Positions 21,601 through 43,392 of a DNA stretch of 64,000 bases are shown in pieces. The stretch's first letter is position 1. Every line of letters begins with the position of its first letter. The stretch is from Calcarisporiella thermophila CBS 279.70. Taxonomy: Eukaryota > Fungi > Calcarisporiellomycota. Both the position numbers and the translations under genes were made by a program. The notes beneath the pieces were generated by a model. The model was not told the DNA's origin. It was given only the letters and a program-made list of their open reading frames with translations, and did no database searches. The DNA lies in contig NW_027192192.1 of NCBI RefSeq assembly GCF_041956535.1, positions 183,051 through 247,050 of the forward strand, read 5' to 3'.

Positions 21601-24505
21601 TTGTCGCGATCATGGATCATGGCGTCCAGGATGGTGGTGCACAATTGCCGGATATCGCGGGTCCAATGCTCCGAGTTGACGAGCATGTAGTAGCGGTCGG
21701 CAAACTCTTCAAAGGTCCACCGCGACGGGTAACCTGCACAACTAATGCGAATCGTTTCTAAAACGCCGCACGCGCGAAGCTGAGCTATCACCATTTGGGG
21801 TTCAAACACCCACGGTGCTTTTCCTTCGTTCGGTTTGATACACCGGATGTAATGCACGTTAGTCGAGTTGATCGTGTCCATGAGGTTGATGAGAGAGCCC
21901 TTAAAAATGGAGCCGAGGGTGGGCTTCTTGGCGATAACGCTCATGCGCTTGCTCGCTTGCTCCTAGAAAGCAAGTTGGAAATTAGTTGATTCCAACCGCA
22001 ATATTTTGAACCCCCCCCCCTCCCTCTCGCTAAAAACCCATTGCTTTCGCAACACTCACCTGAAGAGGTTGAGAGGCCATTCCCTTAATGAGCACCTCTT
22101 TCAGGAAGTCAAACTCGGTGCTTTGCAACAACGAGAGATGTTCCTCCGGCACCGTATCCCGATTTTTCTCGAGGAAACCGTCGGTATCATAAGTGACGTC
22201 GTGAGCATAATGGCTGACCGTAAATGCGTTGTTGGCAAAACGAGGCTTTTGAAAGTACTTCTTGTATTGTGGCGTGGAGAAATGCTGGATGAGTTTATTG
22301 CACCAGCCTTGATCGGAACCCGACGGCAGACGCGATTCCTTTGGTAGAAAGATGAGATCACACGTTAGAGCCCAAATGAATGGGTCCCTCCTTCCCAAGG
22401 TATAAACGATTGTTTCATTTCAATTACCTCATCTAGTAGTGAGAGTATGCCCAGCTTCCCCTCAATCATTTCAATACAAGGTTGATTGTCGCTAAATTCG
22501 ATAAAGGTCCAATCGATATTCTCGCGAATATACTCCTACCAAATGAAAGAAAAATGCAGGCAATACCCACAGTTAAACGTTTGAAACCGCCCAAACGCAA
22601 CTGCTCCTCTCCTCTCTCCTCCACCACCTTACCTCTTGTTCAAGTTTGAACACATGCTGGTTGAATTCCTGCTGCAGCTTCTCGTTTGCATAGTTGATGC
22701 AGAACTGCTCGAACGAGTTCTTCTTGAAGTGCTCAAACCCGTAAATATCGAGTACACCAATAAAGGTGTTGACGCGCGAGAGATCTTTGTGTGATAAACT
22801 CTCATTGATCACGCCCACTAGCCAATCGAATAGATTAGCGTAGATATATTTGGCAACGGAATCCCTGACCACGACCGCCTGCGCAGGCTGGAGATTGCTC
22901 ACGATCTTCTCCGATCGGGTGGTGATTTGTTTTCGCACGATCCACTTGCGGAACTCGGAAAGGTTGATGCCGAGAAGCTCAGTCGCGGTGGCAAGATGCG
23001 GATCATCCTCCGCCAGCATGGCGTCGTTGCGCCCCGTAATCTCAATGTTACCAATATGGAGCAGGGCGGCAAGCAGGCGAAAGATTTGCCACTGAAGCTG
23101 GACAGAGATGCCCACGGTGGAGAGCGCACGCTGAGTCGTCTCGAATTCGGCCGCATCGTCGACCCCGGAAATCGTTGCGACACCACCTTGCCGTAGATAG
23201 TGGAACTGATCATAGGTTTTGATTTTAAAGGTCTTTTTCTCAGACATGGGCGCACCAGCACAGAGCTGTTAAGAGGGGACAAGAAGTAGAGAAGTTAAGG
23301 AGTTATAATAAAGGGGGAAGGGATCTAGATCGAAGCATCTACCTGATAAAAAATATGATAGTTTCGTTCGGTGTCAGGCTGGTAAATCAATCTAGATCGC
23401 TCGAGCAGATAGGTTCTTATTTTCGCCCCAATGATATTAGCGCCGTCATCAAATTGAATCTAGCAGGTAAAGGAGCATTGATAAGTCGATGAGAAAGGGA
23501 TCAGGAATCCATCCGAGCGGGAAATACCTCGATGTATTTTCCGAATCGCGAACTGTTGTCGTTCCGTGTTGTTTTTGCGTTACCGAACGCCTCCATGATC
23601 GGATTGGTGGCAAGAATCTGCTCCTCCACTTCGGACATTCCGCTGACCACAACGGCATTCATCCCGTCCACGAGGCGGGTCGATTTCTTCATGGTCTTCT
23701 CGTGGTCATCTGCGGTGGCAAAGTAGCGCATAATGTATTTAGCGCTCACCGTTTTACCCGCCCCACTATTGTATTGAGGAAGAGCTATTTGTGAGTAGGC
23801 GAGCCTAGCCCAAAACGATAGGGCGTGCCTAACCTTTCTCCGGATACGACTATCGTCTGATTCTTTTGCTCGCGTAGCATACAACGGTAAGCGTCTTCTG
23901 CAATTGCAAAGAGATGGGGCTCAAGCTCTCCGCGTCTTCGTCCAGAGTATGCCTGTACAATCTCTGGCTCGTATAGATTGACACGCTGGAACGGATTGAC
24001 TGCGATGAGCACGATGCCCGAATATGTGTAGATGTTTCTTTGTGCGTAGCGTGTCTTGATGGCATTGAGAACTGTAGTGCAATGGAGGCAATTATTCATC
24101 AGATTCGAAAAAAATGGAGAGTCGTCTGGGATTACCAGCAGGTTCATTAAGATAGCTGAGATTAGTGAGGTCATCTGTGGTTTCCAGATGGGGGGGATTG
24201 CGCAAAGGAGGGAGTTCAGCAAACTGGGTTTTTTCCAAGTTAGCAAATGTCGACTCGATAGTGGTTTCCTGCAAGAAGCGCAGAATTGCAAGAGAGAGTC
24301 AGTAGAGCGTAGATATGAAGACAAGACGAAGGCTGAGATCATTTACTTTGCCCTTTTCATCGGTAAACACAAGCCGGACGCGATCTGATTGAACATCTTT
24401 TGCCGTCACCTGCGCGCTTACCCATCCTTCACGTTCGTCTACAAACCACACACGCGTGCCCTTGGTGTAGGCCTCCAGTGCCTGGGACACAACCGGCGGA
24501 GCCAT
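18653..24505 (-). CDS. MYO2: Class V myosin (motor, IQ repeats, coiled coil, DIL cargo-binding tail)
   Basis: [21 protein letters not shown]-loop split by an intron, [43 protein letters not shown], tandem IQ motifs, [15 protein letters not shown] and [14 protein letters not shown] (DIL). Confidence 0.97.
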
Positions 24506-27450
24506 TAAAAATTAACAAGTATATATATAAAGAGATAGATATGAAAGAGAATATATATATATAAGCAATGAGAAGAGTCTCTAACAGAGTTAAGATGAAA
24601 AAAAAAAAATAGAAGTATATTGAAAAAATGACAAATATGAACAAAATAAAAACTCCTCTGGTTTTTTTTCCATTCCGCTCCCTCCAGTGGCTGATGATCT
24701 CTCGTTTTGAATATCTCGGCAGCACAGGTTTTTTTATTAGGGATTTCACGCGAACCCTCCGCCCGATCCATTAGGCATCCGCAGCTCCTCCAGAACAATA
24801 AGACCTCAAAGTAGCGTGCCTTCTAGGGAGAACTCGCCGAGCATTAAAACGCTCCCATTGATGTGGGGAATGAAGTCGGTGTTCTACGCGGTGCACCCAA
24901 CACTCCCGGGGCACCGTTGTCGCAGGAATCCAAGCAGATTGCTTTTTATTCTTGCCGCTGTGGGTTGCAACGCGAGCGGAAAGAACCTTGGGTGGACCTC
25001 AGCTCGCCGCTGCATCCCAAAAACTGAGCCACCCGACCTCTCCAGGCGCAAAAGCGGCCCCTGAAAAGCTCAGGCAGCAAGTGTTCGAATTAGGCTCATG
25101 CATTGCCTGCGATGAGGTTCATGCGCGAGCTGGCAGGATTATTCACTCGCCCGCATTGCAGCCCTCCAATGGCGCCTCTCGTGACCAGTTAGTAATCCAA
25201 GCAGCCCAACCATCGCCGCATCGATTGGGCGGCGGCCTGGGGTGAGCGCGGGGGCAAAGACCACTTGCGAGGACCGCGTTTGGGTTAAATGGAAGCGCTC
25301 TTGAAAGCCAGCAGCAAATCCAGCTAACCGCGTCCCGGCTCCGATCTGGCTGGCGGTATGCGCCGCTCTCGCCAGCTTAGTCAAGGCCGCAGCAGCGAGG
25401 AAGAGAGCGTGTTCGGTGAGCTACCGAGAGTTAGGCTCGGGCGGCAGCAACATGCTTTCCCAAAGGCAAGCCGGCAGTTGATGACGCTGGAGCTTCGGGA
25501 CCGTGGGGATGCCGCGGAGAAGCCCGTCGGCCCCTCCAAGTCGCTTTTTTCGGGCAAGCCAGAAACCCATCTGCAACCTTGTCTACGGCGCCCACATACA
25601 GTGGCTCCAGAATGGAGGCGCGCATTGAATCATGTTGCTTAATCGGCTCATTACCCCACAGTTTTCAGCGCCAATCGCCGCATGCATGGTGATTTCCAAG
25701 CTTTTGGGGAGACCACCTCGGCAGGCTGGATCCCGTTGAGCTCAGAGGAAAGAGGGGCCGGCAAGGAGGAAAAGGTCTCAGAGCTCGACTGTTAATGAGC
25801 GCACAGAGCTGCTAATATTTGAAGGATTAAGGAGGAGCCCTCTTCAAGCCACCCCACTATCAACATTTATGTACATATCTCTGTGTGGATTCTATTGAGC
25901 ACTGATCCATATGGGATGACGTTGCATGGGTTAGGGTGTAACAATTTGTAGCGCTTTGAAACCGGGGTTTTCCGTTTTTGTGTTTAATGAAATCCCATTC
26001 AAAGTATAAAAGGAGAAGAGTTTTTTTTGGCTCAAAAGAACCCCATCCCTTCTGTTGTTGTATTAAAACCACCCATTTCCCCCTCTGCCTTCCCTCTCAT
26101 CACATTTCAATATGGAACCGACTCAGTGCACGACTCAACCCACTCATTCCAACAACGACCAAGCGTCGTGGTTGAAGCCGTTAGACCTCTCTGAAGACAC
26201 CATGCAATTAGCTGCAGACCTATACAAGATAGCCATCAATTTATATCTTGTTTTCGATGCATCCCTTACGCTGTTTGTTTAGCTATCTATTGTGAATGGC
26301 CAATGACCCTCTTGGATGCACCGTCCAATATCTCAATCATTCCAGTTATATTTCTCTATATAACACTCGATCCCATGGACAATGATCTTATTTTATTTTT
26401 GTAATCTCAATTATTTCATCATAATAAAGCCGCATGTTTATAGAACAGTTCCCCTCCTTTATGATGATGTGGTGCCCCGTAGCTCGATCATCATCTCTTT
26501 GAAGTGCTACCAAGGTCACAGCCCACCTCACTATTACATTTAAAATCACAAGGCGTATAATTGAATCCCTAAGCCTAACTTATGCACGTTTCAGGGGCTT
26601 ACATCGGCAATAAGTTTCAAAGGGTGCACGTACCTGAGGATAAAAAAAAAACACCAAGTCAATAGCTTAATTGACAGACTATTTTATCTCCTGAATCGTC
26701 CTTGGTAAAAAGATGGTCCATCTTGCCCTGAAAATGTGTCAATGCATGTCTCAGTTACCGCAAGTGGCATCTCAAACCACCTAAAACGCCCCAGAAACAT
26801 AAATTCAGTGCACCACCGCCAACTTATAGCACGGATGTATAACAAACATATAACCCATCCGCCAAATACAGTATAAATGCAAGTGCAATGGCAATAGGGG
26901 CCTTATATAGGAACACGGGTATCAATTGAAACAGTAGCGATATATAAACCTCCATGAATATATACCTTAAATGTGGCTGGGTGGTAGCAGCCCGTAAGAT
27001 GACATTATAACATGGCACTTATTCTTACTAAATCGGTCATCATTTATATAAGTGGGATGATTTTCATAAAATGTATCGATTGCCCGTATAACTCAGGGAG
27101 AGATGGAGCTGAAAAAATATATATGAAATGAGGTTGACCCAAAATGATTAGCGCCTAGAAAATAAGAAGTAGACAACGAAACTGCAGTATATTGAATAGC
27201 ATAAAACCTCAACCCAACTGAACAATTCGTTTACATAATAATAGAAGATGCAATGAATGCCACATTTGGGTGGCAAACAAAGTGTATGCAAAGCCTCAAT
27301 GTGATAGCCCCATCCACCGTTTATTTCAGACAGTATGTCAAAATTCTGAGCATAGACTCCAACAGGGATAATCGAGCAGATTGGTCAATATAAATCCATA
27401 TTTAAATACATTATACAAACTTCAATGGCCGCTAGAAGAAGAACCTCAAT

Positions 27451-28411
27451 TTAATTGTAATATCGCCAAAGCACGGCTGCTACAGTTATTAGAGTGGTGA
27501 ATATCATCACGCCCACGTTTCTCTGCTTTTCGACTCTGGAAGCGAACTCTTCTCTATCGTTGACTCGGGGGAAAGGCTCACTTGGTACCGGCACGCCTAG
27601 GAACTTACAGAGTGGCTCCCAGCCTTCCTTCACCTAGAGATCGAAAAAAATGACAGTTGGATAAGGGTTAAACTCACATGCCTCAAACTTAACACTTCGG
27701 CAAGATGAGATAGATGAAAATACGCACATTGAATACAAGAAGTCGTTCCGCGGGCACCACTCGCTTTACCTCTTCAATGTGTTGCTTATACACTGCTACC
27801 GCCTTCTCTTTATTTCGGGCTTGTCCATGGAAAGTACCGTCCATAATAAGCTTGTTGATCATCTTGAGGAAATTACGGCCGAATGTGAAAAAGGCGACTA
27901 TTTTGACTAAGGGTTCAAATGGATATTTGAAGATAGTGCTCATGGCACTCTCGTGCCTTTCGTGATCGCCATTCGAGGTCAAAAGGGAAAGAATAGAGCA
28001 ATATTAAGTGAATCCTTAGCTGAATCTCATCATGGAATCTTTTTCACCCTACCATTTTTCCGGACTATCGCGTACCGTCAACACGACTTTCGCATCCGGA
28101 TATTTGGCCATCAACTCCTTGTAAAATGAAGTAGTAGGCCAATCTACGCACGAGTTAAAGTCTTTGAATATTTCGTCCCAGTCCACCTTTTTGCCATCGA
28201 AAGCATCAATAAACTTCTGCATGTGCTCTGGTCTAACACGCTTCATGTGATAGCATGGCCCGAATCCTAGCATGTCAAGGGCAACCATCATGGAGAGAGT
28301 TCCTGTTCTCCCAAAACTAGTAACCGAGGTTAGTTTTCGAGAATTCTTTTTTCCGTACTCCAGTCGACCGTAGTATACTCACCCTGCCCCGATAACTTTC
28401 AGTGGTGCCAT
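27451..28411 (-). CDS. Sulfotransferase-family (P-loop, Sulfotransfer_4-like) protein, 4 exons
   Basis: MAPLKVIGAG|FGRTGTLSM...LGFGPCYHM, DWP, YPDAKVVLTVR, VPAERLLVFNV, EGWEPLCKFLG.PVP..PFPRVND; C-terminal TM. Confidence 0.9.
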
Positions 28412-29964
28412 GGCGCGGGTGTGTTAACTAGATGTGGGGGTGGAAAGATAGAAGATTTTAATTCGAAAGGCAGAGTCTCCATAGAACGGTTTTTAAATAC
28501 AAAGCTAGATCTGATATCATTCATTAGATTTCATTCGGGTAAAGCGCCCAGTTTAGAAAAGAGTGGCGATGCTCGGAATTTAACAGTCCGAGTTGGAATG
28601 ATTCACCAACTTACGCATATTAAACTGGTCGGATGTGGAAGATGTTTTTCCGCGCCAGAGAAGGCCTTGGACTCGGCTAAATCACCTGAGGACCGGCTAA
28701 AGAGTAAGTGTGTGAAAAAACCCCTTCATACAATATCAGCTCCCCCATATGCTCAAGGAGAGAGATTATAGTTCAGCGGATTAAATATTTAATTTTCCCA
28801 TGGGCTTCCTAGTGCTTACTCATCTTGGCGTGGTCTACTTGTCACCCGTTTTCTAACGGTGGGTAAAAACTGAACACTTTACTGTCTTGATTCAGACATT
28901 TCCGACCTTCTTGGCTACTTATCGTAGTGGCTATAGCAATCTTTTCCAAAATGCTGTGTCTCAAGTTTGAGCCTGCAGTGATAAAACAAGGGCAATATCT
29001 TCTCTTTTGCCTTGATTTGTATCAGTGTTTGTATCACGGAACTCTCTTGTGAGAATTCAGATTAACAAGGATGCACCACAACGAGCGTTAGTAAAACTCT
29101 GGCAGTGTTAAACACATTAGGCCCCACATTACACGTAATTAAGTTGGAGTATTAATTGGTATGACATCAAAAACTATAATGACAGCGTTCTAATAAAAGA
29201 GGAGACCTCTAATGCCCGCCCCACTTCGCTTTTGCACTGCCGGCGATACGAGCTTTTTCCCCCTGATCCTTGGCGAGGGGGATAGCAATTTTTTATGCTT
29301 TTTCATACTCCTATTTTTAGATTTCGGGCAAAATGAATATCAAGAAAATTATTCAGCCACGAGAGGATATTCTTAGAAAGTCATCCATGCATTGATATTC
29401 AACATGATTTCGGATGAATTCATAGTGTGATGGAAAAATGTCACTGTTATGATCCTGATGATCCTCCGTCCATAGAACACGCCTCTATACTATTGTTAAA
29501 AGAGAGACGAACGACCCATTTTTCCCGCGTTAGATTGAATATAGAAATGTTTTAAAGCAAAGCCACAAACACTATTGCAATATTTTTGTGGAGTAGTTTC
29601 ACGAACACACTTTCTGCAATGAACAGTGGTGTATTGAGCGAGAAGAGGACCTAATCTTTATTTCAAATCTAATCTTTCATCTAAATTTCAGAAATCCAGT
29701 TCTTATTATGAGCGTTACATTGATCCTACATTATTTATTCTTTGGAAAGTATTACATAACATGTGAAAGGTTTCTCTTGTTATACCTTTCCATCTGAATT
29801 TTATCTATTTTCTTATCCTTATAAATAAGGATGCCATTTTGCTTGAAATAGGGGGATCATTAGCAGTTTTTAATACTTTCTGGGATATTTCTTCACATTT
29901 CCAAATTTTTAAGCAACGTTTTTGGAAGCCCTATTAGAAAATTACACACAAGGAAAAGTCCACC

Positions 29965-30303
29965 ATGATAAATTTATTCTATAGCGTTATGACAATGCTC
30001 TTAGGAGTTACTTTTCTAATGGTTCGCGCGGATACAACTACGATATGGGGTGGCAGTGATGGCAACTGCAATAATTGGTCAGGTTATAAAGCACTTGGCT
30101 GTGGATGTCACGATATACCAGCTAGGCCTTTAATGTATTCCTATGGCATCGAGTACAAGGGACAACATACCAAATTTTATAACCGCCGAGGATGCAGTGG
30201 GGAAGTATTGGGAATTTTTACAGAGAGTACGTGCTATCGGGATCCACGGGCTCGGTCTAACAGCATCTGTATCAATTGTAACCCGGGCGGATGGGATTGC
30301 TAA
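29965..30303 (+). CDS. Secreted Cys-rich peptide, MiAMP1-like (beta/gamma-crystallin-fold antimicrobial peptide family)
   Basis: Signal peptide ending VRA-D; TIWGG...CNN, CGC, YKGQ...YN..GCSG, SI.I.C match the recalled MiAMP1 pattern (TVWSGPGCNN, CGC, YTGQ...YNQAGCSG, SIFIQC); TATAAA at about 29820. Confidence 0.78.
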   Translation: MINLFYSVMTMLLGVTFLMVRADTTTIWGGSDGNCNNWSGYKALGCGCHDIPARPLMYSYGIEYKGQHTKFYNRRGCSGEVLGIFTESTCYRDPRARSNSICINCNPGGWDC

Positions 30304-30680
30304 ACCACGAATTAGTATGTACTTGAAATCTATATAATGAGAAGTTATTATTTTTATTTTCTTTTTGAGGTAGAAACTGAGAGAGGTTTCAACTTAAAAT
30401 TTCCTTTAAGGTGCTAATGAAATTGAAGCCTATTTCTTATTGCCCTTATCATTCCTCCATCCCTTGAAATATATTTTATATTGTTATAATAATATAACAG
30501 AGGCAACTATGATTTATAATTATCTTCAAGATATAAAAGTAAATTTTTTAAGATAATAGAAGGCAGCGTCTTCTCGTCTTAGTCTTTGGTTTATTGGGTG
30601 CTGACTTATGCATAGAATGAATGGATAACAGGGAGATCGCTCATTATCTCTGGGTTACCAGTTTTTTAGCTTTAAAGAGG

Positions 30681-31030
30681 TTTTTTTTTTCTCTCGGGAA
30701 GTGAGGGAAAAAATTTTGATAGTTGATAGTTCACTTGATAGTTCTAACCCAAGGGAATAGAACGGGTAGGTTTCCACCTCAATATCACCTAGGTACTGTC
30801 TCTAGCCTCCCATTTTTGAAGTTGGATTTTTCTAAGGATTATTGCTACCTCTTTTTGTAAACATTTGATATTGCTTGTCTACTGCAATACTATTGATATC
30901 CATTGAGTCCTGAGAAAACCCAGCAAACTCCCATGGATGGGCGTCGCCTGCAGAAATGGAACCCGCAAAGCAGTTCAGCCCCGGGATCTCAAATCACTAC
31001 GCCAACCAAGAGAGGACTTTGAAAAGGGCA
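30681..31030 (-). mobile_element. 3' fragment of a decayed non-LTR retrotransposon
   Basis: Poly(T) at 30681-30690 (poly(A) on minus); 30760-30810 resembles 36755-36810. Confidence 0.45.
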
Positions 31031-31041
31031 TCGTTTTATTA

Positions 31042-31985
31042 TTTTTTTTTTGGTCGATCAATGGAAGCTTTATTGGGTATAATAATTCCCAGTTTTTACA
31101 AGCTGTTAAAAGATATATTCCGTTCCACCACCAGCTATCAGGAAAACACCGGAAAGTGCTTAAGAGAACCAATTTATCCAGGTCAAGAGTAACCGCCACC
31201 CCCGCAACCCCCAAAGTGTTGATAACAACATATCCATAAGACACGAATGCCATTAACTAATCCTGACAGACCCACTCAGCTTACGATATGCATTTCGAAG
31301 GCGAACAAATAGTAAATGAGCGAATATCAGAAAACTGGCCGGTGTATCAAAGGCGCTTGATTTGGGCTGAGTTCTTTTTGACCTTAACCGGTGTCTGCAT
31401 CTTATCAAGCTCGAGCATTCTAGAATGAAGTGGTCTTAATTTTTATTGTACCTGTAGATTGCAGGGGTGTTTCTCCAGATTAGGATGACAGCCGTTCCAA
31501 CGATATCCATCACCCTCGGAAGGCTGTTGATAATGGGTGGACATCCGCTAATGTTCAATTTTGGATTGCATTTTATAAACTGCGGATGTGTCTACCGGGA
31601 TTAGTCTATGGCCAATCAAGCTGAAAGGCCTATCTATGCAGGAGGAAGAAGTGCTGACTAAACTAGTCAGGGTGACTCTCTCAACCAGTCGAAGAATTAA
31701 TGCCTATAGGGTTAGACTTGGCATTGTCCAGTATTGTTTCAAATCTTGATCGATGTATTATCCATAAAACATTGCCATGGCTCAATACCCACTTGGTTAA
31801 GGCACTGGTCCGATTGCTTCTTCAATCCAGCTGGTCTGTATTATCCTGTAGACTCCCCTGGAGAGTACACTAACCTTTTGGCAGTTTGTCAACTCTTAGC
31901 CGGTTCTGTGTAAGGACTGGGCGGCCAAACAATGCATGTGCAATGGATTCAGGAATCTCTAGAGAACAACCTTTGTAGGTGTTTG
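31042..31985 (-). mobile_element. Decayed non-LTR retrotransposon, ORF2 C-terminal region and 3' end
   Basis: Minus-strand AATAAA...ATTGATC...poly(A) end at 31042-31075; stop-riddled remnants (KVVL*RFL, MFLWIIHRSR) resembling the LINE ORF2 C-terminal region. Confidence 0.55.
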
Positions 31986-32561
31986 ATTTTTTATTTATTT
32001 GTATTAGTAGTAATGCCGGCGATAATACAGAATATATGATTGAGCTTAGATGAACATGGAGAGTAAATTAGAAGGGGACGGCCAAATCCATCTAAATTAA
32101 CTTCAAGACCCCCCCAATTGATCCTATTTTGATCATGGTTTTTATACCTTGTCGTAGTAATGATTGCAGAAAGTTCCATATGGCCTCCTTTGAATATTTT
32201 AAGGATGTAGAGTGGATACAAGTTCAAGTTCGCAGCAAAAACGGGACGAAAATAAAAGAGAGATTTTACTAATACCAAACTTATACATGCTCTTTGTATG
32301 CAATAGAAATGGCTGACGCATTTATTTTTCCTTTTAGCTTAATGATTGCAAGTATTAGATTCGCGGTTCATATATCAAGAGTAATCCTGCATTTGTTCAA
32401 AGAAGCTCATCGCGGTTTCATATCTGTATTATACTCGATGTCATATTGGTCCCATGCACCCTCCTCTACCTCCTCCTTCACGTCCAACATGACAGAATCC
32501 TCGGTTATTTTGGCAGCAACCACTTTAACATGGGTATCGCCGATGTCGACATCACACCCGA

Positions 32562-33396
32562 CTAGTTGGGCTGCCTTGCAAAGCAAAGAGATAGCCTCCT
32601 GAAAGATTTCCAAAATGATACCTAACTAGTCATGATATCAAAAATCGAACTTAAATGCACACCACTTACACGCCTCGATTGTTTTCCACTGCGCTTTTGA
32701 ACTCTCTTTGGAATGATGCGTTGAGCTGCACTGGATACCGAGGAAATAATTTTCTGCAAGAATTGAACAAGGGAGTAGGTAGTCATATCTCTCTAAACTA
32801 TGCCTGGATTTCTTACGCTTTTCGTCCGCTTTTCGATGTGTATATGGGTCTGTTTCGGAATATATGGGGCTTCCGAAGAGCTTCCGCTTTGCTTTTTCTT
32901 ACTTCTCTCTGGTCTTAAGAGGCAAGATGACTCTCACTTCACCCTCCGTTTATCTATCGTATTTGATATATCGCCTACTTACGTGAGTGATAACAGTACT
33001 TTGCGTGCTTCACGCTGATCACACATACTGCAAATATCGGTGCAATACTTCACTAATAATCTGAGCCTCATATCCTCCTCTTTACTGGCTCTAAAGAATA
33101 CTTTAGCTGTATCTCAGTTGGAGCATAATACCAACCTACTCACTTTATCGGATCATAATTGTTGGCCTCACATTTAGCAGGATCGAGATACCTTTGTCCA
33201 TATTTGTCGGTAATCTTGTACGATTGATATTCTATAGCCGCTTCTTCACTCTCTCTAAGAATGGCCTTGCATTCTGTTTATCAGACCATATCAGATGATA
33301 TTCAGTAGTAGATAGAAGTGAAGTAAGAGCAAAAGTTTGAATTAGCTAATGCCTACGATTTATTAAATACTCCAGAGGGGTATTTCCTTCCGACAT
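32562..33396 (-). CDS. Orphan six-exon protein (about 175 aa, basic C-terminal half)
   Basis: Five GT-AG introns splice into one open frame: MSEGNTPLEYLINQCKAILRESEEAAIEYQSYKITDKYGQRYLDPAKCEANNYDPIKASKEEDMRLRLLVKYCTDICSMCDQREARKVLLSLTPERSKKKQSG...KRSGKQSRRVSFWKSFRRLSLCFARQPN*. Confidence 0.7.
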
Positions 33397-33955
33397 TGGG
33401 AGAGCTTGGGAATGATTTTGGGAGTTGCTTTGGTTGGCTTTTCGAGACGACTCATCTTGACATATATATCAGATTTTTCATATTTTAATCCTAACCTAAT
33501 TGATGTGGATTTACGAAAAACTTTATTGCGGTCAGATAGGAAACAAAGAAATATAAATTATTACTATAGCTTAACTGATTAAAATTCATGACAGTACAAT
33601 GCTAGGTTAAAAATATTAGACAAAATGTTTGTGACCATTAGAGAGCTACATAACGACCCACTATTGCTCTTATCTCTCTTTAGACAAAGGCATATCACTT
33701 GGATATAAAACAAGCAATATGGTGTACCACACCCCATTCTGGGTCCTTATGGTTACGAATCTAGGATTATCTCTTTGTTTGATTTATGCACTCTCTTTGG
33801 ATGCGATAGAAATTCACTCTTTTTCAAGTTTTCATCTAGTGATAACAAATATTGTATCCGCCGTGTATATAAGTCAAGGGTAAAACCTGCGGTGATTCAA
33901 GCTCAACGTGGTTCATTTTAGTATCATTTTTTTACATATACATAGAAACAACAAA

Positions 33956-34321
33956 ATGCAAGCTGTTAGAGAAAGACTTGATAGTTTTGGTCATTGGATA
34001 ATCCAATATGACCTAGGGCAAAAGGCGTTAACTGAATCGTACGGCTCGCATACCCGGTTTTATAGGGAAATTACTTCTATTCTCAGCGAGCACGGATATA
34101 TACGAGTTCAGCAGAGTATATTTCGGCATCGAGACGGATGCCTGCTTGCCCAAGTGCTAATTCCTCTCATAGCAATTCGCAATCTACAATGGATAGACGG
34201 CCTGTCTCCAAATGGAGATCCTCACCTATTAAGCGTTCGAGTTTCTATTCAGGACGCAGAATACATGGACGTAACTCCATTTGTTCGTGGAGGTGATATG
34301 CCCGCTATTCCTCTCACTTGA
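33956..34321 (+). CDS. vapD: VapD/Cas2-like ferredoxin-fold endoribonuclease (121 aa)
   Basis: IIQYDL (acidic residue at the end of beta1), Y.EI..IL.EHGYIRVQQSIF (cf. GF..QGSVY), LAQV...I..LQWI, and C-terminal MDVTPFVR (cf. SDFTDFIR); ATG in an AAAATG context. Confidence 0.8.
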   Translation: MQAVRERLDSFGHWIIQYDLGQKALTESYGSHTRFYREITSILSEHGYIRVQQSIFRHRDGCLLAQVLIPLIAIRNLQWIDGLSPNGDPHLLSVRVSIQDAEYMDVTPFVRGGDMPAIPLT

Positions 34322-34499
34322 GTATGTGATGAGAGAGGACTTTCCTTTATTAGTTTACCAATTGTTCTACAGAATTGTTTCTTCTTATCGAAATACATGT
34401 TTTATTTATTATTGGAGTCTTTATTGTTTCAGAAAGCTCTCCATAAAGTGCATTAGCTACGTTAGTAAAAGGAATAAAATGAAGGAAAAATTAAGAATT

Positions 34500-36300
34500 A
34501 AGGCAGTATAGGAGCTCAGGATACCATATGGATATTTTTAGCTCATATAGAAAGAGGAACGGTAAAACTCAAACTAACCTTGGATATCAGAGTATAACAT
34601 GATGAATGAAATGAGGGGTGGAAGAGGGAGAGGGGTAAGGAAGAGTAGAAGTAGCGTCTACTGCTTCATTCCAGTACCAGTACCGCTCTGATGACTCCTT
34701 CTTTAACCGCGCCTCACTTGCACCACTTGCTTCAAAACTGTTCAGTTTGTCGCTTTCTTCGTTCTCTTATCTACTCGGCTCCTATATCCTCCTCAATATC
34801 CAGTGCACGATTGATGATGGTCTCGGATGAAGGTTGAATGTATTCAAAATGGAAGGCAATATGATCTCAATGCATTTTCCTTAGTGCAGAGTCGAAAGTA
34901 ATTTGGGCCACATGCATAGCTCTTCGTGGAGAATCAGAAAATTCACCTAGTGTTAGATAATGAGCTGTCAGCACTCGAGTATTCTGGGAGCCTGGGATGG
35001 TGTTGATATGCCTCTCCGCGCACTGCCATACTGGTGCGGGTTCGGGACATTCGAAAAACCAAAGAATATCAGGAAACCAGACTGACCACCACATGGAAGA
35101 GATGCAAGGATCAAGGATGAGCTCCTCTGCGAGCGAAAATTTCTATGCACTTCCCCAGTCCCAATGAAGAACTTAACAATTACGTCGATCAATGGCCGAG
35201 GCCTCTATGAATTCTTCTCTTGAGCATTTTCCGGCATTTCACTGAAAGCCGATTGGGTGGAGCGGTCAATATCTTCGTTTGTTCCTATTTTTTCCTGAGT
35301 TTGCTGATATTCTTTAGTTTTCTCTCCCCTCTTGGATTGGTTATTCTCATCTGAGGAGTAGTCTGTTTGGATAAGTTTCTGACGCCTGTGCTTGGCAGTT
35401 GTATAACTATCTTCGCTCTGGGGGTTGAGAGGGTGGCGGTTGCGCTTCACCGAGGTAAATTGGTTCCCGTGAGCACTTTTGGTTGTTTCCCTGATAGCAA
35501 GTTGAATGGAGCTGATAGTATCTTCGTCCGTTCGATTTACCTCCTGAGTTGTTGCTTGGAGCTAATGGATTGTTCCTGTATCAAGATTACTTCCTCTTTC
35601 CCTTTGTTGGCCGGTGGAGCGTCGGAGCTTGGATGAGGCTTGTTGACTTGGGTTCTTTGACGACGTTTCCGTCTCGCCAATTCTGGACATTCGAGTATCT
35701 TATGGCCCTGCTTTTTGCAATACTTACAGAAGAGTGGGGCGTTTCCCCAGGTCAAGATGACAGGCAACTCCGTCAATGTCTATCGCCCTCAGGAAGTTAT
35801 AGGTGATGCCTTGGCATTCACCTATGTTTAGTTTGGCGAATCCGGTCTTGGAGAAGAATCTCATGTACCCATTGTTGTGTATACAAAGTTAATCTCTTCA
35901 ACTGGCGCGAAGGATGAGAGAGTCTCTCTGACTAGTCTAGTCTGTTATTCTGTATTCTGCATAGGCAGGTCCTGCAGCTTGATTGAGGGTATGTTGTGGT
36001 GCTCTCGGCACAGCTTGATGATTGGATTTGCTTCTCATCAAAGGAGACGATGTCCTTGATGACGTTGATTATATCGCTGTCGCGTCGGAATGTTGCTTCT
36101 ATAGCTCCTAGTCACGGGTATGACTGAATTCCACAGATGCTTTCACAATATTGGGTGAGCAACTTCTCCTGGCAAGGTTTGAGGAAGAGATCTACATCCT
36201 TGAAGAGAAACTTCGCTGCATGCTCGAAGTTCTTATAAGAATCGATTTGGAAATGTTCATCTCCGAGATTGTTCCAACGCGTTTTCATTTGATTCCCACG
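34500..36300 (-). mobile_element. Decayed L1/Tx1-like non-LTR retrotransposon (ORF1 zinc knuckle, endonuclease remnant, ORF2 3' end)
   Basis: WGNAPLFCKYCKKQGHKILECP CCHC knuckle (35537-35776), followed by a basic low-complexity ORF1 tail, an APE-like LGEF remnant, and a 3' segment (34535-34715) shared with 38530-38710. Confidence 0.75.
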
Positions 36301-36419
36301 ATGGTGGACGCCGCTTCGACATAAGACCGTGTGGGATGTCTTTCTGAGTTACTACGTGGAGGGATCCCCGTTCGAGTGGATAGTGTCGTCCATTTTTTAA
36401 CAGCCAGTCCCAAGTTTTT

Positions 36420-36700
36420 TTTACTTTTTTTTTCTTTTTTTTTTGATCAATCAATGGAAACTTTTTATTTAATTTTCATATATTACATGAAGTTAATGTC
36501 AATAGACTTAACATAACGAGATATATGTCCTTGATCGATATGCGTGTATCGTAGTTGTCGTGAATAGTATGTACGCGAAACCGATGTAATCTTTGTACTT
36601 ATCGTAGGAGGGATCCTTTCAATAATGGGGACTCTATTTCTGATCAAGTGGACAGCAGTCACAAACTGAGAGTAAGGGCTCCATGTTTTTTTACTATAGA
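36420..36700 (-). mobile_element. Short 5'-truncated non-LTR retrotransposon 3' end
   Basis: AATAAA...ATTGATTGATC-poly(A) on minus strand at 36435-36470, the same terminal motif as at 31042 and 38381. Confidence 0.45.
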
Positions 36701-36704
36701 TGTG

Positions 36705-38200
36705 TTTTTTTTTTCACAAAGGACCTTTATTGAAAAGTATCCTGTACAGTTAAAACGGTAGGGTAACTTCTACGTCAAAATCACCTGAGTACTACCCCCA
36801 GCCTACCTTGAAGTGGTTTACAAGTGAGAAGAAAGTAGATAGAATGTTAGAATTGGTTGATTTGAATGGTTGAGTATGTAAGATAGTGATAGTGAAATGT
36901 ATATAGATAATATTTCTTTACTCTCGCATATCGTTTGATAAGCAAAAGGCAAAGGTGTTGAAAGAGAGTAACATTTACTGTCGCTGTAATATATATCTAA
37001 GCTCATGTTCCTTTGGGACTACTGGCAGCTTTTGCCTTAGTCTTAGGGGGGCACTTGGTCATTGATGGGCTTTTTGGCTTAGAGATAGTTTTCCGTGTTG
37101 GATGATCGATGCGCGTGGGCGATTTGGTAGGACTGAAGTCGAACTTCATGTTCTTCTGGGAAGCTAGGAATTCTTGCGGGTTCACCGTCTTGATTTCGGG
37201 GCTTCTCTTGGCTGGCACAGTGGATAGTTCAAGTCCGGATATTTCGCTAAACATTTGGATCCAAGAGGTTTGGTATTCGGTGCCTTTGGGGTACTGGGTA
37301 TCTTACTGGTATCCTCTTGTTTCTTCTGTGATTTCTTCGTCTCATTATCTGTATTCATTCTATCTGGCGTGGTTTCCCGAGTGGGCGGGGGGAAGTGTTT
37401 GCACGGGCTTATATTCTTGATGCTGTCTGTTCTTCTTTGGGCATTCTACTCGTATGTGACCAGGAGTCTTACAGTAGTTACACACTGGTGTAGATCCTCT
37501 CCAAGTAAGGATTATCTTGTCCTCATCGATGGATAGCTGGCGAGGTAGAAGGTTTTCTAAAGGTTCCGTGGTCTCAGGGTTCGGCTCAAGTATGGCGTAG
37601 CAGTGGTCTTGTAGCCACCCCGGGTTCCCATAGTATTGGAAGTCAATCTGGATGACTCAGGCATACTTGGACAAGGCTGCTTCCAATTTTTCTCTGAGGG
37701 ATTCCTCTTCCTGTCCTGGGAGGTCGTTAATTCTAACGTTTAACACTCTCTGGGACGTGGAGAGAGTCTTGTAACACGGGACTTTCGATCGTTCGCGTAA
37801 AAACCATTTCTGATTACCTCGTAAATGTTCACCTCATTTTGGAATGCAAGGATGATGGTCTTGGAATGTCCAAGGATCTTGATGGCTGCCACTTGTTTCT
37901 GGTACTTCTCATATAGTAGCTTCACTGCTTCTTGGGATGAGAACGCAAAACGCGAAAACTTGTATGTAACCGAGTTTTTGAAAGATGAGCTAGGCGAGCT
38001 TCTGTTGACACTCTCCAGAGTCGGTTCCTCGCCTGGGTCTTTGGTTTTCCGGGTGCATGCTACGCGTAAAACATCCGCGTAGGATGGATGGTTATCAGGG
38101 GGGATACTAGTCATTTTTCTATTGATGTGACTACCAGTGTGACTGCTATTATATAGCTGGTACAAAAATTTTCTAGTTACATTTTGTCATAAACTAGAGC
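36705..38200 (-). mobile_element. Internally deleted non-LTR retrotransposon (ORF1/gag remnant joined to a 3' end)
   Basis: ORF1-like MTSIPPDNHPSYADVL...IILAFQNE and frameshifted continuation (VRINDLPGQ, LSKYA); AATAAA and poly(A) on minus at 36705-36731. Confidence 0.6.
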
Positions 38201-38380
38201 GATATAACTAGGGGATACTCGGGGAACATAGGTAAAACTATAGGTTTATTCAAGAACAAGGTGTGTATGTTGGAAGTTCTCATTAGAGTGTTCCTTTTAT
38301 ACTATAAGATATAATAAATATATAACCTGTTAACTAATAAAGCTAATGAATACTGGTTTATAACTAGTTCCTAATTAATG

Positions 38381-38712
38381 TTTTTTTTTGATCAATGCCG
38401 AGTCTTTATTGTATAGGAAGACTCTAAAATACAATTGTTACATTATTATAAGCAATAAAGTGAAAGGGAAGCCAAAGTTAAAGCTTTGTGTGATATCGTA
38501 GATCGAAATGATATGTTGGTCATATCGACTTTCAGCTCAAATAGGTAAGGGAGTGGTGAAACTCAACTAACTGTGGATATCAAAGGATAACATGAGAGGT
38601 GGTGTGGGGAGTAAACAAATGGAAACAGAGGATAGGAAGGGGATAAGGTAGGGATTACTGCGTTATCCCAGTATCAGTGCCGCTCCGATCGCTCCTTCTC
38701 TAACCGCACCCA
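38381..38712 (-). mobile_element. 5'-truncated non-LTR retrotransposon copy immediately upstream of tRNA
   Basis: Poly(A) and AATAAA on minus at 38381-38410; 38530-38710 aligns with 34535-34715. Confidence 0.65.
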
Positions 38713-38790
38713 TAGTTTCTAATTAATGTCGGAGCTTGAATATCGTTGGGATAGCTTGATATGTGACTCAAGTTATGACAATTTCGAGAA

Positions 38791-38874
38791 GGTGATATGG
38801 TCGAGCGGTCTAAGACGTTAGACTCAAGTTCTAATCTGCGTAAGCAGGCGTGGGTTCGAATCCCACTGTCACCA
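38791..38874 (+). tRNA. tRNA-Leu (CAA), intronless
   Basis: Acceptor GGTGATA/TGTCACC-A, A-box TGGTCGAGCGG, anticodon arm TTAGA-CTCAAGT-TCTAA, long variable arm, B-box GGTTCGAATCC, oligo-T terminator downstream. Confidence 0.97.
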
Positions 38875-38936
38875 ATTTCTTTTTTCATAATTTATTCAAT
38901 GTAAATATCTCTTTTTGTCTCTTTACCTCTGACTCG

Positions 38937-40017
38937 ATGCCATTTCAATACTTTCGATTCATCCGACCTCCACCACGTCAGATTGCTCCTAATCAACGCT
39001 TTAAACTCATTTATTCTCTCACTAATGATTTAGGCGATGAATCCTACTCTCCTCCCTTTGATCCGCGTTTCTCTCTTATTGACAGTTGCACCCATGCCGA
39101 AATCGAAGGAGCGTGCAGGCTTGTGAAGAAGCTAGAGAAGGGAACCCCCGGAGAAAATATTGTGGAGGTTGCGATCTCAAACACATTAAGCATCGGAATT
39201 AGAGTGAAGATCAGAATAGACATCGGGAAAGAGATATCTGGAGGCCTAAGCCAGTTCGTTGGAAGTCAGAACGGCCAGGTGGTGGTGATTCCCGTTCTAA
39301 GTGCCGATATTTCCGTTGTAAGGGCGAATGCTCCAGTATCAAACACGTTGGTGTTGCAAGCAGAGCGACATTTTTATTTGCCTGACAACCGATGTGCTAT
39401 TGTGAGTGAGGAAACTGGACACAGCATTGCACGGCGCATATGGTGATTACTGTATCTAACTATCATTTTCACCCTAATTTCCTAATCTTTGGCCTCTCAG
39501 GGACTGTGGCGTCATGCTGGCCTGGATCTTCACGGATAAGACCTTTGTAAAACAACTGGGTGTGGACGCGTCCACACGCTTTCTTGAACTAGGGGCTGGC
39601 TGCGGTCCTGTGTCAATTGTGGCCGCTTCCATTCTTTCCGCCCATTTTACGCTGACGGACGTCGAGGAAGCAATTCCGCTTCTTCATCAAAACTGTACAC
39701 AGAACTCCCTCAAAGCGGACGTGGTGGAGCTTGACTGGGGTCAATTAAACGATGAAGTCGTAGGGAGAGTAGGGGGAGTGGATGTGATCTTGCTTGCCGA
39801 CGTGCTCTATAATGAGTCTAGCCATGGCATCCTCCTCGATACCCTGTGTTGGTTTAGCCGCCACATCAACCCCCGCATCAAAATAGTTCTGGCCTATAAA
39901 TTTCGACATGAGTCCGAGTTGAATTTTTTCGATATGCTAAAGCCGCATTTTTCGCGCAAGAAACTGCGCCAGGAGATGGACATCTGCGTATACCTGTTAG
40001 AGCCCATTCCTATCTAA
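38937..40017 (+). CDS. SAM-dependent protein methyltransferase (Methyltransf_16 / METTL21-like), 2 exons
   Basis: SIARRIW|DCG, FLELGAGCG motif I, LTD, ELDWG, ILLADVLY, AYKFRH. Confidence 0.9.
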
Positions 40018-40120
40018 GGGCGTATTTGAGTCGGGTGAGAACTGGATTGAGGGATGTGTTTATTCTGTATGTAGGGTCACTAACTAGAAATAAATTATCA
40101 TGCACATGGATAAACAAAGT

Positions 40121-41877
40121 TCATTTTTCAATCGCAAGCATGCGTCTAAACTGGATATTCTGAGCGCTTGTGCTTTGTTCCCAGGCTTCCATACGAGCAA
40201 GTTCCACCAGCAGCTTTTCGCATTCTCGTAGTTCGCGAGTCTCTTCCTGGATGGTGCGATATGTATTCTTAAGTGCCTTGGCGAAATCCTGGATCTGATA
40301 AGAAGAAACGTGAATATTCTGAATAGAGCAAAATAGAGTAGGTATTCAGCGACAAACCAGCTCAGTTCCGGCTCCTCCTTCAAGGAGATTGCTCTCTAAT
40401 AATTGCGCCAACTGGTCGAGCTGTTCTTGCAATGCATCTATTTTAGTTCAAATTAAAAATGGGTGTTAATGAACGCTACGCAGAGCGCTTCTTCACATTG
40501 AATAGAAAACGTTACCAAGGTTTTGGATGCTGATTTGGGAAATGGGCATGACTGAGGTTGTTCGTGCGAGCGCCTCCGCATATGCAACATACTTTTCAGT
40601 AAATGTATTGAGCTCGTCAAGAATCGCGTCTAAATTCTCTTGCTATCTCATCATAGCCATTAACCACCGAGAGCTCACAAACTTTCTAAGTGGAACTAAC
40701 CTGAATACGGAGAATATGGTCTACTGCATAAATCTCTTTTTCTAGCTTTAGTTTCCGCTCCTCACGCATGATCTCTTCATTCATGTCGCGCACCATCTTC
40801 CATACTGCTAGCAACTGCTCCTACAAGCAAATCAATTCATTTTAATAATTTTTCAGTAAAACCTGGTGAAATAAAAATTCTTCCTACCTCTGCTTGGATT
40901 TTCTGTTGTTCAAACGACCATGCACTCCGTGCGTTGAGGAAACACCATTGTGTCAGACGCGTCTGTAAATGAGAAATCTCCTCTTCGTTATTTAGTGAAT
41001 CTTTTGCTGGCTGCGAAGTTTTTAGCTGAGGGATACGAAGGGGTGGTTTGCCTCGAAGTTGGGCAGTCGGCGAAGTTTTAGACGAAATAGACAAACGGGA
41101 AGTGGGAGCATCTGAAGCAGAATCAGGTGGCATGCAAGAATTGGTATCCGTATTAGGGGGTTGAGTCGAAGTTTTATGCATCTGTCTATCTGCCTCCATT
41201 GTAGAGGTTTCTTTTGGCTTAGCAGGAATGTTTTTAACAGCGTGAATCTGTCTACCCTCAGACTTTTCAGGTAGTGTAGATGGTTTGGCAAACGTAGAGC
41301 TGCTTGTCGTTGATACCTGTTTTCTAGAATCCCTATTACTGACTCGTTGACCTATTCTCTCTTTTACTAAGTTATTTGTGGCAGTATGGGTTTGAGTAGC
41401 AGATGCAGCCGAAGATTTAACTTGGGGGGGTATTGTCCTCGTTGTGGAAGAAGTTGTCGATTGCATATAGCGAGAGGCAATCACACGTCCAGTCACTACG
41501 CAAATATTTGAATTCAAATATTGCCTCAAAAAACAATGCGATGTTCATACAGACCTTTCTTCGGCTTTGAATCGGCTCCCTCTTTCTCCTTTTCTATCGC
41601 GCCCACCCTCTGTCGAACACTCTCCACTTTAGTTACATTCTGAGCTCTTGATTCGCTAATCAATTTTGTCTTATCCTGCGCGATTGTTGACGCCGGCCTG
41701 CGTCCTGTCACGTTTGCAGAGAGGGTAGTAGATCTATATTCAAGAAGTTAGACGCGTTTGAGCGAAAATCAGTATACGATGTCTTAAGGCTGACTTAGTA
41801 TTAGTGCTTATAGGACGTGGTTTGAGATTTGTTTTCACGGCTCCGCCAGAAGATCTTGATGTTGCTTTTTGTTCCAT
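40121..41877 (-). CDS. Augmin subunit HAUS8/QWRF-like protein, multi-exon
   Basis: Basic Ser/Thr-rich N-terminus containing VIASRYMQ, then LQTRLTQWCFLNARS...FEQQKIQAE|EQLLAVW and a coiled-coil C-terminus. Confidence 0.6.
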
Positions 41878-42013
41878 TTTGATATTGAATGAATTTATAG
41901 TTTCAAGAAATAGAAGAAAAAAATTGAAAAAAAAAAAATGTAACGCGTCAAATTTGGAAAATAAATAATTAGATGGAAATAACGAAGAAAGTTCTAATTC
42001 TTGCTCTATTCTA

Positions 42014-43275
42014 CTATAGCTGCTCTTTGGCAAAGGCCTCGGCAACTATCAAGGGGAATACTACTGTCGCATCCGCATACACCTTCACGCTCTCAGCACC
42101 TGATCTGATCTTCCCCCAACTCACTGCTTCGTCTGGGCGTGCTCCGCTGTCACTGCCATCAAATTCTTGCGCAGTGTTCACGTACACCGCAAAATCGGCC
42201 CCATTTCTCATGAGGTTTGCATTGCAAATGTGATGCTTTACCACCCCTCCCCCCAGAATGATCATCCCAGTTTTGCGGGCGCGAACTGCGAGGGTGTTAA
42301 TGGCTCGAATATCGGACGCAATATCGACTATCAGCCCAGGGTTCTTATATGAATGGAAGTAGATCATATCTCCGAGCGAACCATCTGTCAAAGCGGGGCA
42401 GAACACGGGAATATCGTTCTAGCATGATCGAGAGCACATCATGAGCATAAGCTTATAGGCAACTGAATATAGATCATTGAATCCAACAATTTACCTTGTA
42501 TGCCCAGTAGTAGATAGAATCAGGATGGTTAATCTCTTTCCCTAATCGTGCAATGATTTTCGAAGGGCTCCATATAGTCCCTTCCTTCTTTTGCTCCTCC
42601 AGCATTTGATCCAGGAGGGGCACCACCCAATCTTCAAACTTGCAATAGTTGTCGTTCGGAACCAATAAATTCCCAATTCGATTCAACCCGCGCCGGCGGA
42701 GGTCTGCACCGTCAAGGTGGAATGACCCGAGGAAGGTTGGACCAAGACACTTGATGAAATCTTCCTCTATCCCACCCGCTGTAGTAACGAGACAATCAAC
42801 CATACGATGCTGAACAAGATATTTTATAATTTCACGCAAGCCTGAGGAGACAAGATTAGAGGTATAACCAAGGAAGATGCGACAGCGAGTCTCAGAACGA
42901 ACTTTGGGATCAAGGTACTCCTCATTTTCATCAGGAAGAATTGGTTCGTCTGATAGTCTCCATTTACGCTTTATATTACCATGGAGATTAGCTGAGCTGG
43001 ATTCACAAAAGAACGATTCTGTTCAATATCATTACCATTTGCTTGATAATATCGATCGCTTTCCCTAAACTGCTCGCTTGAAATCCGATTCGCTCATATG
43101 ACCGTAGTAATTCCGAAAACGATAATGGGTGGTTGAAGTCAGGTCCAGAAATTGGCACTGCATCATCGGGCATCGGTTCAGATTGCACAAGCACTGCCTG
43201 TGCAGCGAGAGTAGGAGGTTCTTCTTTAGTAGTTGAGACTGCTCCGTTGACTGTTGTTGATGTTGGCTGTGTCAT
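42014..43275 (-). CDS. DYS1: Deoxyhypusine synthase
   Basis: [82 protein letters not shown]. Confidence 0.97.
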
Positions 43276-43392
43276 TGGTATGGTGGAGAGAATAATTTAG
43301 GAAAGAACTATTTACACCAAATGAATTAACAGTCCCAATTAATTTTTCGGCGTAGTCACGCCCTAATGTTATTTCTACATACACGTACTCCT

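Follow-up and report, generated by a model that had tools for sequence, protein, structure and literature searches.

What accounts for the gene-poor DNA that lies upstream of a single tRNA gene in the genome of the fungus Calcarisporiella thermophila? We analyzed a 64-kb window (the whole stretch of DNA, positions 183,051 to 247,050 of contig NW_027192192.1), which is intron-rich eukaryotic sequence from this fungal genome, and studied an interval at about 28.5-38.8 kb of the window. The interval lies on the 5' (upstream) side of a tRNA-Leu(CAA) gene, the sole tRNA within the 64 kb. A preliminary description of this DNA had reported a gene-poor gap with transposable element (TE) relics and three small genes that ends at tRNA-Leu, and had proposed that the gap is a defence island anchored at the tRNA. 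The explanation that we favor, and to which we give about an even chance, is that the gap holds a stack of five or six dead long interspersed nuclear elements (LINEs) of L1 type, which probably arose by repeated insertion upstream of tRNA-Leu, with three fungal accessory genes among them.

The reported layout is present. We found that stop-free frames of at least 110 amino acids (aa) cover 25% of the interval, compared to 54% and 61% of the two flanks, and that the GC content is 40.5% in the interval and 45-46% in the flanks, a difference that is expected because the interval is mostly noncoding. The TE relics total approximately 5.3 kb, or 52% of the interval, with boundaries that were set partly by eye. 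The features of the interval and its borders are collected in Table 1.

Table 1. Features of the tRNA-Leu(CAA) upstream interval and its borders; positions are those of the 64-kb window
Feature	Position	Strand	Evidence and remarks
Sulfotransfer_4 (PF17784) gene, spliced, left flank	27454..28411	-	Pfam E 3e-24, 1e-9, and 5e-13 on three exons; 3' end approximate
MiAMP1-like secreted Cys-rich peptide gene, 112 aa, intronless	29965..30303	+	Pfam MiAMP1 (PF09117) 25.8 bits, E 1.3e-5; cut-off 26
Relic D, probable LINE 3' fragment related to relic A, weakest call	30681..31033	-	69% over 68 nucleotides (nt) to 3' end of A, E 0.001
Relic C, the LINE with the most decay; right boundary approximate	31034..31990	-	blastn, tblastn, and tblastx matches to A and B
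Orphan gene, predicted 225 aa, six exons	33396->32407	-	Gene model by eye; five GT-AG introns of 44-83 nt, no internal stop
Duplicate of the orphan's last codons and 3' flank	33784..33939	-	67% over 157 nt to 32281-32432
VapD/Cas2-fold protein gene, intronless, 121 aa, with Asp19 retained	33956..34321	+	HMMER relatives, PDB profile match, Foldseek
Relic B, internally deleted LINE	34400..36409	-	Open reading frame 1 (ORF1) homology to A, E 2e-10
Relic F, 255-nt 5'-truncated LINE 3' end with tail	36426..36680	-	Candidate target-site duplication (TSD) 36410-36425 / 36681-36695
Relic A, ORF1-only LINE	36705..38114	-	Candidate TSD 36694-36704 / 38119-38129
AT-rich stretch without tail	38130..38364		Candidate 5' untranslated region (UTR) of relic B, or else host DNA that precedes the tRNA
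Relic E, 331-nt 5'-truncated LINE 3' end, AATAAA and A-tail	38382..38712	-	17-nt TSD 38365-38381 / 38713-38729
tRNA-Leu(CAA)	38791..38874	+	ARAGORN; Rfam 60.4 bits; T7 terminator follows

By self-comparison, we detected five clear relics and one weak one, which follow each other from left to right as D, C, B, F, A, and E, with two genes between C and B. In all of them, the 3' end is on the left, the tail is on the minus strand, and the 5' end is toward the tRNA, while C also has internal inversions. The TE relics of the preliminary description are present, but it had missed that they form an ordered stack of LINEs in a single orientation. A minus-strand AATAAA followed by an A-tail is seen in C, F, A, and E; the tail of B is degraded, and that of D lacks the signal. 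Of the seven AATAAA-plus-A7 motifs in the window, four, each of them on the minus strand, fall within 30.6-38.8 kb (binomial p 0.007). Homologous ORF1 pieces occur in A, B, and C, and the relics are 60-80% alike. When the six frames of the interval were compared to the window by tblastn (E<0.01), every match was inside the interval, and none of 111 ORFs tested outside it, a selection of the frames, contained a TE domain.

The relics differ in what they retain. Relic A has an ORF1 of approximately 370 codons with about four breaks and an intact CCHC knuckle (Pfam zf-CCHC E 5e-4), followed by a 300-nt 3' UTR and the tail. Relic B has a broken ORF1 (ATG at 36393) with an intact zinc knuckle, a 3' UTR, a 3' end that is 67% identical over 340 nt to relic E, and a Cys-rich remnant, without a Pfam hit, that we take to resemble the C terminus of ORF2. 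In relic C, the zinc knuckle of the ORF1 pieces is destroyed, and its tail is shared with relic F (87% over 38 nt). The local score of relic D against A was 111.5, and the maximum of 200 shuffles was 106. A six-frame Pfam scan of 28500-38789 detected no endonuclease or reverse transcriptase (RT) domain in the relics, and these domains appear to have been deleted. The AT-rich stretch between A and E showed no homology elsewhere in the window at the self-comparison thresholds. Metagenome scans gave 74 pattern matches and 0 confirmed ones with the ORF1 frame of relic A and 0 matches with 32 nt of the tRNA. For 33500-43499, no sequencing run was listed, which speaks neither for nor against any reading, and four ORFs of the window had no exact counterpart in the protein collection searched.

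Two further observations concern the internal structure of these relics. In relic C, the ORF1 segments at 31110-31271 and 31613-31686 are inverted in place with a normally oriented segment between them (31087-31750 overall), and there is an inverted repeat, 31249-31307 / 31552-31612, that is 69% identical; the inversions may stem from twin priming, the presence of two elements, or later rearrangement. The tails of D (30652-30691) and A (36676-36715) have similar contexts, each with a T-run, a short spacer, and a T-run (73% over 40 nt), which may reflect either a longer 3' end common to both or insertion into a common target.

The two TSD copies of relic E match at 16 of 17 positions, a value equaled in 0 of 500 shuffles, and the close homology of E to the 3' end of B stops at about the TSD boundary. 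The distance from the end of the right copy to the tRNA is 61 nt, and the target has no T-run. Under target-primed reverse transcription, we infer that the right TSD end of E marks the first nick. The candidate TSDs of relics A and F are weaker, with the match for A reached in 3 of 500 shuffles and the anchored match for F in 4 of 500. After younger inserts were subtracted, the inferred nicks of E, A, and F are 61, 313, and 322 nt from the tRNA, and the ORF1 ATG of relic B is 354 nt from it. Therefore, these distances place four insertions no more than approximately 350 nt from the single tRNA of the window. We also found that breaks in ORF1 become more frequent with distance from the tRNA, from 3.6 per kb in A to 5.1 in B and 7.7 in C (noncoding controls, 10-13), as predicted by a model in which newer copies push older ones outward. 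If the stretch at 38130-38364 is the 5' UTR of B, then B, too, would have started at about -60 to -80, with A and F inserted into it.

These properties resemble those of elements known from social amoebae. As described in PMC5911963, the TRE5 elements are oriented opposite to the tRNA genes upstream of which they insert, at a distance of 44-54 bp, and for the NLTR-B element the distance is 39-64 bp. Like TRE5-A and TRE5-A.2 of Dictyostelium discoideum and NLTR-B of Polysphondylium pallidum, the relics are poly(A)-tailed elements without long terminal repeats (non-LTR elements) that lie upstream of a tRNA in the opposite orientation, and they have the poly(A) tail, TSD, 5' truncation, and ORF1 of the TRE5 type. 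The nick of relic E at -61 is near the range of NLTR-B. TRE5-A.2 is reported to have kept ORF1, to lack most of ORF2, and to be mobilized in trans (PMC3159450), and relics with ORF1 kept and ORF2 deleted are found here as well. In contrast to the amoebal cases, the host is a fungus, there is one locus, the 5' end of the element is at -78, and other inserts are at about -313 and -322; furthermore, the relic ORF1 has a CCHC knuckle, and there is no RT to place on a tree. The ORF1 protein of TRE5-A contacts TFIIIB (PMC5911963, PMC5006619), a contact that is putative for the relics.

By analogy to Dictyostelium TRE5, the stack could have formed if an L1-type RNA were guided to the tRNA gene, probably by the RNA polymerase III (Pol III) factor TFIIIB. 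The plus strand would be nicked approximately 60 nt upstream of the tRNA, reverse transcription would be primed on the poly(A) tail, and each new copy would push older DNA outward, while some copies (A and F) would land within the 5' part of an earlier one. Because endonuclease and RT domains are lacking, A and B would have been mobilized in trans, like TRE5-A.2. In this gap, which would be tolerant of insertions, the MiAMP1-like, orphan, and VapD-like genes may persist as lineage-level fungal accessory genes.

Several of our own results weigh against targeting to the tRNA. A clean distance comes from relic E alone, whose own 5' end lies 78 nt away from the tRNA. For A and F, the TSD windows were picked after the data had been seen, and these two inserts, at about -313 and -322, are too far out for a TRE5-type window, except if they were nested in the 5' UTR of B. 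We considered whether B had inserted exactly at the -61 site of E, but the match of its left flank to that site was not significant, with 7 of 12 positions, a value that 9 of 113 background flanks equal. Relics C and D lie a further 3.3 kb away, beyond two genes, and an Rfam search found no decayed second tRNA beside them. The decay gradient consists of three points, of which the count for C is inflated by inversions, and the assignment to an L1-type clade, made from ORF1, tail, and TSD with no surviving RT domain, is best taken as probable. The orientation of the relics, with the 5' end facing the tRNA, is that of the TRE5 type, but T-runs are skewed to the plus strand across the window (11:6, 7:0, and 17:2), so that an element seeking poly(A) would also produce a single orientation and the shared orientation is weak evidence. 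In A and B, the ORF1 ATG is immediately preceded by an A-run, which in A may belong to the TSD. Finally, all of this concerns a single tRNA locus.

Several of these points suit another explanation, in which a Zorro3-like L1 element sought poly(A), AT-rich, or promoter-type open DNA, copies nested in one another, and the tRNA is incidental to an opportunistic TE graveyard. We consider this a serious alternative, which accounts for part of the layout just as well, although a less probable one overall. Zorro3, an L1-clade element of Candida albicans, is described as having an A-run start before ORF1 and as targeting poly(A), and the available text of the two sources gives no tRNA link (PMC1965478, PMC7175516). 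Relics A and B, in which an A-run directly precedes the ORF1 ATG and the 5' UTR would be very short, recall the 5-bp 5' UTR of Zorro3 (PMC1965478), and the relics share with it a fungal host, an L1-type LINE organization, a zinc-finger ORF1, and a poly(A) tail. The candidate TSD of relic F holds a T-run and is 9 nt from the tail of relic A, and the window-wide skew of T-runs and the distance of C and D from the tRNA also fit incidental insertion. The main fact against it is relic E, which has a clean 17-nt TSD in DNA that is not poly(A) and has no T-run, whereas Zorro3 inserts into poly(A) tracts and is reported not to make large target duplications (PMC1965478). In addition, the flanks contain 36 A/T runs of at least 8, yet no relic was detected there, and the stack ends 61 nt from the sole tRNA in 64 kb. 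Relic C, in which two segments are inverted internally and an inverted piece is duplicated, raises the further question of whether an assembly or amplification chimera has joined repeats from several loci, since chimeras of amplified DNA can give such an inverted pattern. We regard this as highly improbable, as relics that are only 60-80% alike would not be collapsed by an assembler, E and probably also A and F are flanked by TSDs, and the inverted repeat in C, at 69% identity, is old.

How do the three small genes fit with such a stack? The preliminary description had compared the interval to the tRNA-anchored islands of prokaryotes and proposed that it may be a hotspot for foreign antagonism genes of apparently different origins, plant-like and bacteria-like. 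Prokaryotic islands of this kind have an integrase or recombinase gene and a duplicated tRNA fragment (att) at the far boundary, and they sit at the 3' end of the tRNA. The likeness is in the arrangement, with accessory genes and mobile DNA by a tRNA gene between conserved blocks, and some details agree with it: antagonism-type folds or families are seen for two of the three genes, the orphan and VapD-like genes have a LINE group on either side, the broken duplicate of the orphan 3' end abuts the start of the VapD-like gene, a sign of local rearrangement, and by arithmetic the VapD-like stop was roughly 140-430 nt from the tRNA before relic B inserted. However, the parallel is not supported. 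A six-frame Pfam scan of 28500-38789 at E<=10 found no integrase or recombinase, with the zinc knuckle and MiAMP1 as the only matches; we found no att-like repeat of the tRNA elsewhere, whether as a 20-mer (up to 3 mismatches), a 16-mer (up to 2), or an exact 12-mer, with one 14-mer at 51393; and the interval is on the 5' side of the tRNA. The mechanism here is that of retrotransposons, and the cargo has fungal relatives and introns: the named relatives of the VapD-like protein are Mucoromycota, the nearest MiAMP1-like clusters are fungal, and the orphan has five introns. The GC content at third codon positions (GC3) of the three genes (0.42, 0.35, and 0.53) overlaps that of 11 host segments (0.36-0.70), a range from which one mis-framed sulfotransferase exon (1 stop) was left out.

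We therefore consider a defence island as first framed to be unlikely. The idea of an insertion hotspot stands insofar as the region upstream of the tRNA looks repeatedly hit, but by L1-type retrotransposons, with no island made by an integrase. Likewise, two of the three genes are plausibly antagonistic, but a foreign origin is unsupported, and the "plant-like" and "bacteria-like" labels that were taken as its sign gave way to relatives in fungi. An origin of the cargo as retrocopies or by 3' transduction was also rejected, as the orphan keeps its five introns and the two intronless genes are on the opposite strand with no A-tail seen. A weak form of the proposal, accessory genes in a TE-rich gap, survives, and our preferred reading of the three small genes is that they are fungal accessory genes at the level of the lineage. 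Judged from their sequences, the genes do not have the features of recently acquired foreign cargo; for the VapD and MiAMP1 families, a transfer in the distant past would be compatible with the data.

For the VapD-like protein, a full HMMER search found 16 relatives at E<=0.001, the best of which is 51% identical over the full length. We looked up 10 clusters, of which 4 carry an organism name (Calcarisporiella thermophila, Rhizophagus irregularis, R. clarus, and Funneliformis caledonium, all Mucoromycota), 6 are without an organism, and none is named as bacterial. Within the window, these names are the one, indirect, indication of the lineage of the host, probably Mucoromycota. The family profile matches solved VapD structures in the PDB (best E 8.6e-6), and the predicted model (predicted local distance difference test [pLDDT] score, 69.6) gave seven top Foldseek hits that were all VapD (E 7e-5 to 9e-4, TMq 0.51-0.60). 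The predicted Cas2-like fold and the Asp after the first strand, which aligns with the Asp of VapD, are shared with the bacterial proteins (H. pylori HP0315, 3ui3; H. influenzae VapXD, 6zn8; C. jejuni VapD-VapW, 9kan), so that in the model the product has the fold and conserved residue expected of a VapD. This residue, Asp19, is conserved in 9 of 13 aligned rows (3 gaps and 1 Ile) and is presumably catalytic. In contrast, identity to the bacterial proteins is 15-21%, the NCBIfam VapD (NF041506) score of 22.8 bits is below the curated cut-off of 100, and the fungal sequences, which are extended at both the N and C termini, form a family of their own in Mucoromycota.

Other searches with this gene were negative. 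In prokaryotic genomes, there was no full-length close relative among 120 candidates, with 3 partial matches of 30-42 residues; a word-index protein search found no relative (8 candidates), and the A2 profile search recovered 3 of its own members alone among 996 candidates. We found no ATG ORF of at least 60 aa directly upstream on the same strand, no antitoxin-like ORF was seen there, and a sigma-70 scan around the gene was at chance level (6 found, 4.8 expected). The product is predicted, from the modeled fold, to be an endoribonuclease, and the gene belongs to a fungal family of probable bacterial ancestry; a recent import is not supported. Several database entries among this family of approximately 120-aa VapD/Cas2-fold proteins (P0001-P0015) look truncated or mis-spliced. 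No description of a conserved VapD/Cas2-fold family of Calcarisporiella and arbuscular mycorrhizal fungi was found in the literature searched. These fungi are described as often hosting endobacteria, which makes the family a candidate nuclease worth assaying.

The MiAMP1-like peptide has 8 Cys, a hydrophobic N terminus, and a net charge of approximately +1, and it is predicted from its sequence to be a secreted antimicrobial. It shares with macadamia MiAMP1 (PDB 1c01; PF09117) a signal-peptide-like start and the first four Cys, which align with those of 1c01 (E 0.014), and the Pfam match spans model positions 4-76. It differs in falling just below the Pfam cut-off, in its Cys number and charge, and in that its nearest Atlas clusters are unnamed fungal ones. 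The three best of these, at 0.92-0.93, consist of unnamed proteins from Ascomycota and Basidiomycota, and the cluster with plant MiAMP1 comes 13th of 30, at 0.88, in a comparison in which recognition (2288) was just under threshold and the taxa do not give the range of the family. Because the nearest clusters are fungal, a plant origin appears unsupported rather than excluded. A word-index protein search with this ORF found no relative (1 candidate), there were no relatives among viral contigs (0 of 11), and PF09117 had no match in 1 genome or 14 controls, which is uninformative. A single-sequence structure model of the peptide (pLDDT 42) was unusable and was not used. The MiAMP1 family is described as antimicrobial with rapid birth and death in plants, and the portion of that source at hand does not mention fungal members (PMC9828482).

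The last exon of the orphan gene has no credible Pfam match (best E 0.12), and its intron structure makes it look like a native fungal gene. The alignment of its 3' end to the duplicate scored 164.5 (200 shuffles: mean, 105; maximum, 147.5), and the duplicate ends 17 nt before the ATG of the VapD-like gene, which points to a tandem copy broken where that gene now sits. A spacer of 560 nt (33396-33956) separates the orphan gene from the VapD-like gene, the two being arranged head-to-head, and there is no evidence of an interaction between them; head-to-head layouts are known for fungal toxin/antidote and immune gene pairs.

Outside the interval, the flanks contain Pfam matches to deoxyhypusine synthase, Sec2, RPAP3, a PAK-type kinase, and PROPPIN, and myosin V and chitin synthase were recognized by eye. 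Upstream of myosin V, approximately 2.9 kb (24505-27400) contain ORFs without a Pfam match, and no sign of a TE was found there; this stretch includes a GC-rich patch at 25001-26000 (56%). The exons of myosin V (19189-23268) have a GC3 of 0.65-0.70, well above that of most neighboring genes (0.36-0.59), and the GC3 of a WD40 exon at 60140-60802 is likewise high (0.67). On the other side of the interval, an ORF at 38844-39446 (169 aa from the ATG), without a Pfam match, starts 63 nt after the tRNA and precedes a Methyltransf_16 exon, and it is possibly the N-terminal exon of that gene.

A broader proposal can be drawn from the stack, namely, that L1-type LINE families of an early-diverging fungus aim approximately 60 nt upstream of tRNA genes and that the resulting stacks are landing pads that trap antagonism genes, among them a previously undescribed fungal family of VapD/Cas2-fold nucleases, which recombination between LINE copies would shuffle from one tRNA locus to another. 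We put this forward as a speculation and consider it doubtful. In the available text of two sources, tRNA-gene-targeted non-LTR elements are listed for social amoebae only, and the fungal examples are LTR elements (PMC5911963, PMC7175516); no fungal case of a tRNA-targeted non-LTR element was found in the literature searched. If the fungal case is true, it would represent another convergent origin of Pol III-directed targeting, and it would make the model of a TFIIIB tether testable in fungi.

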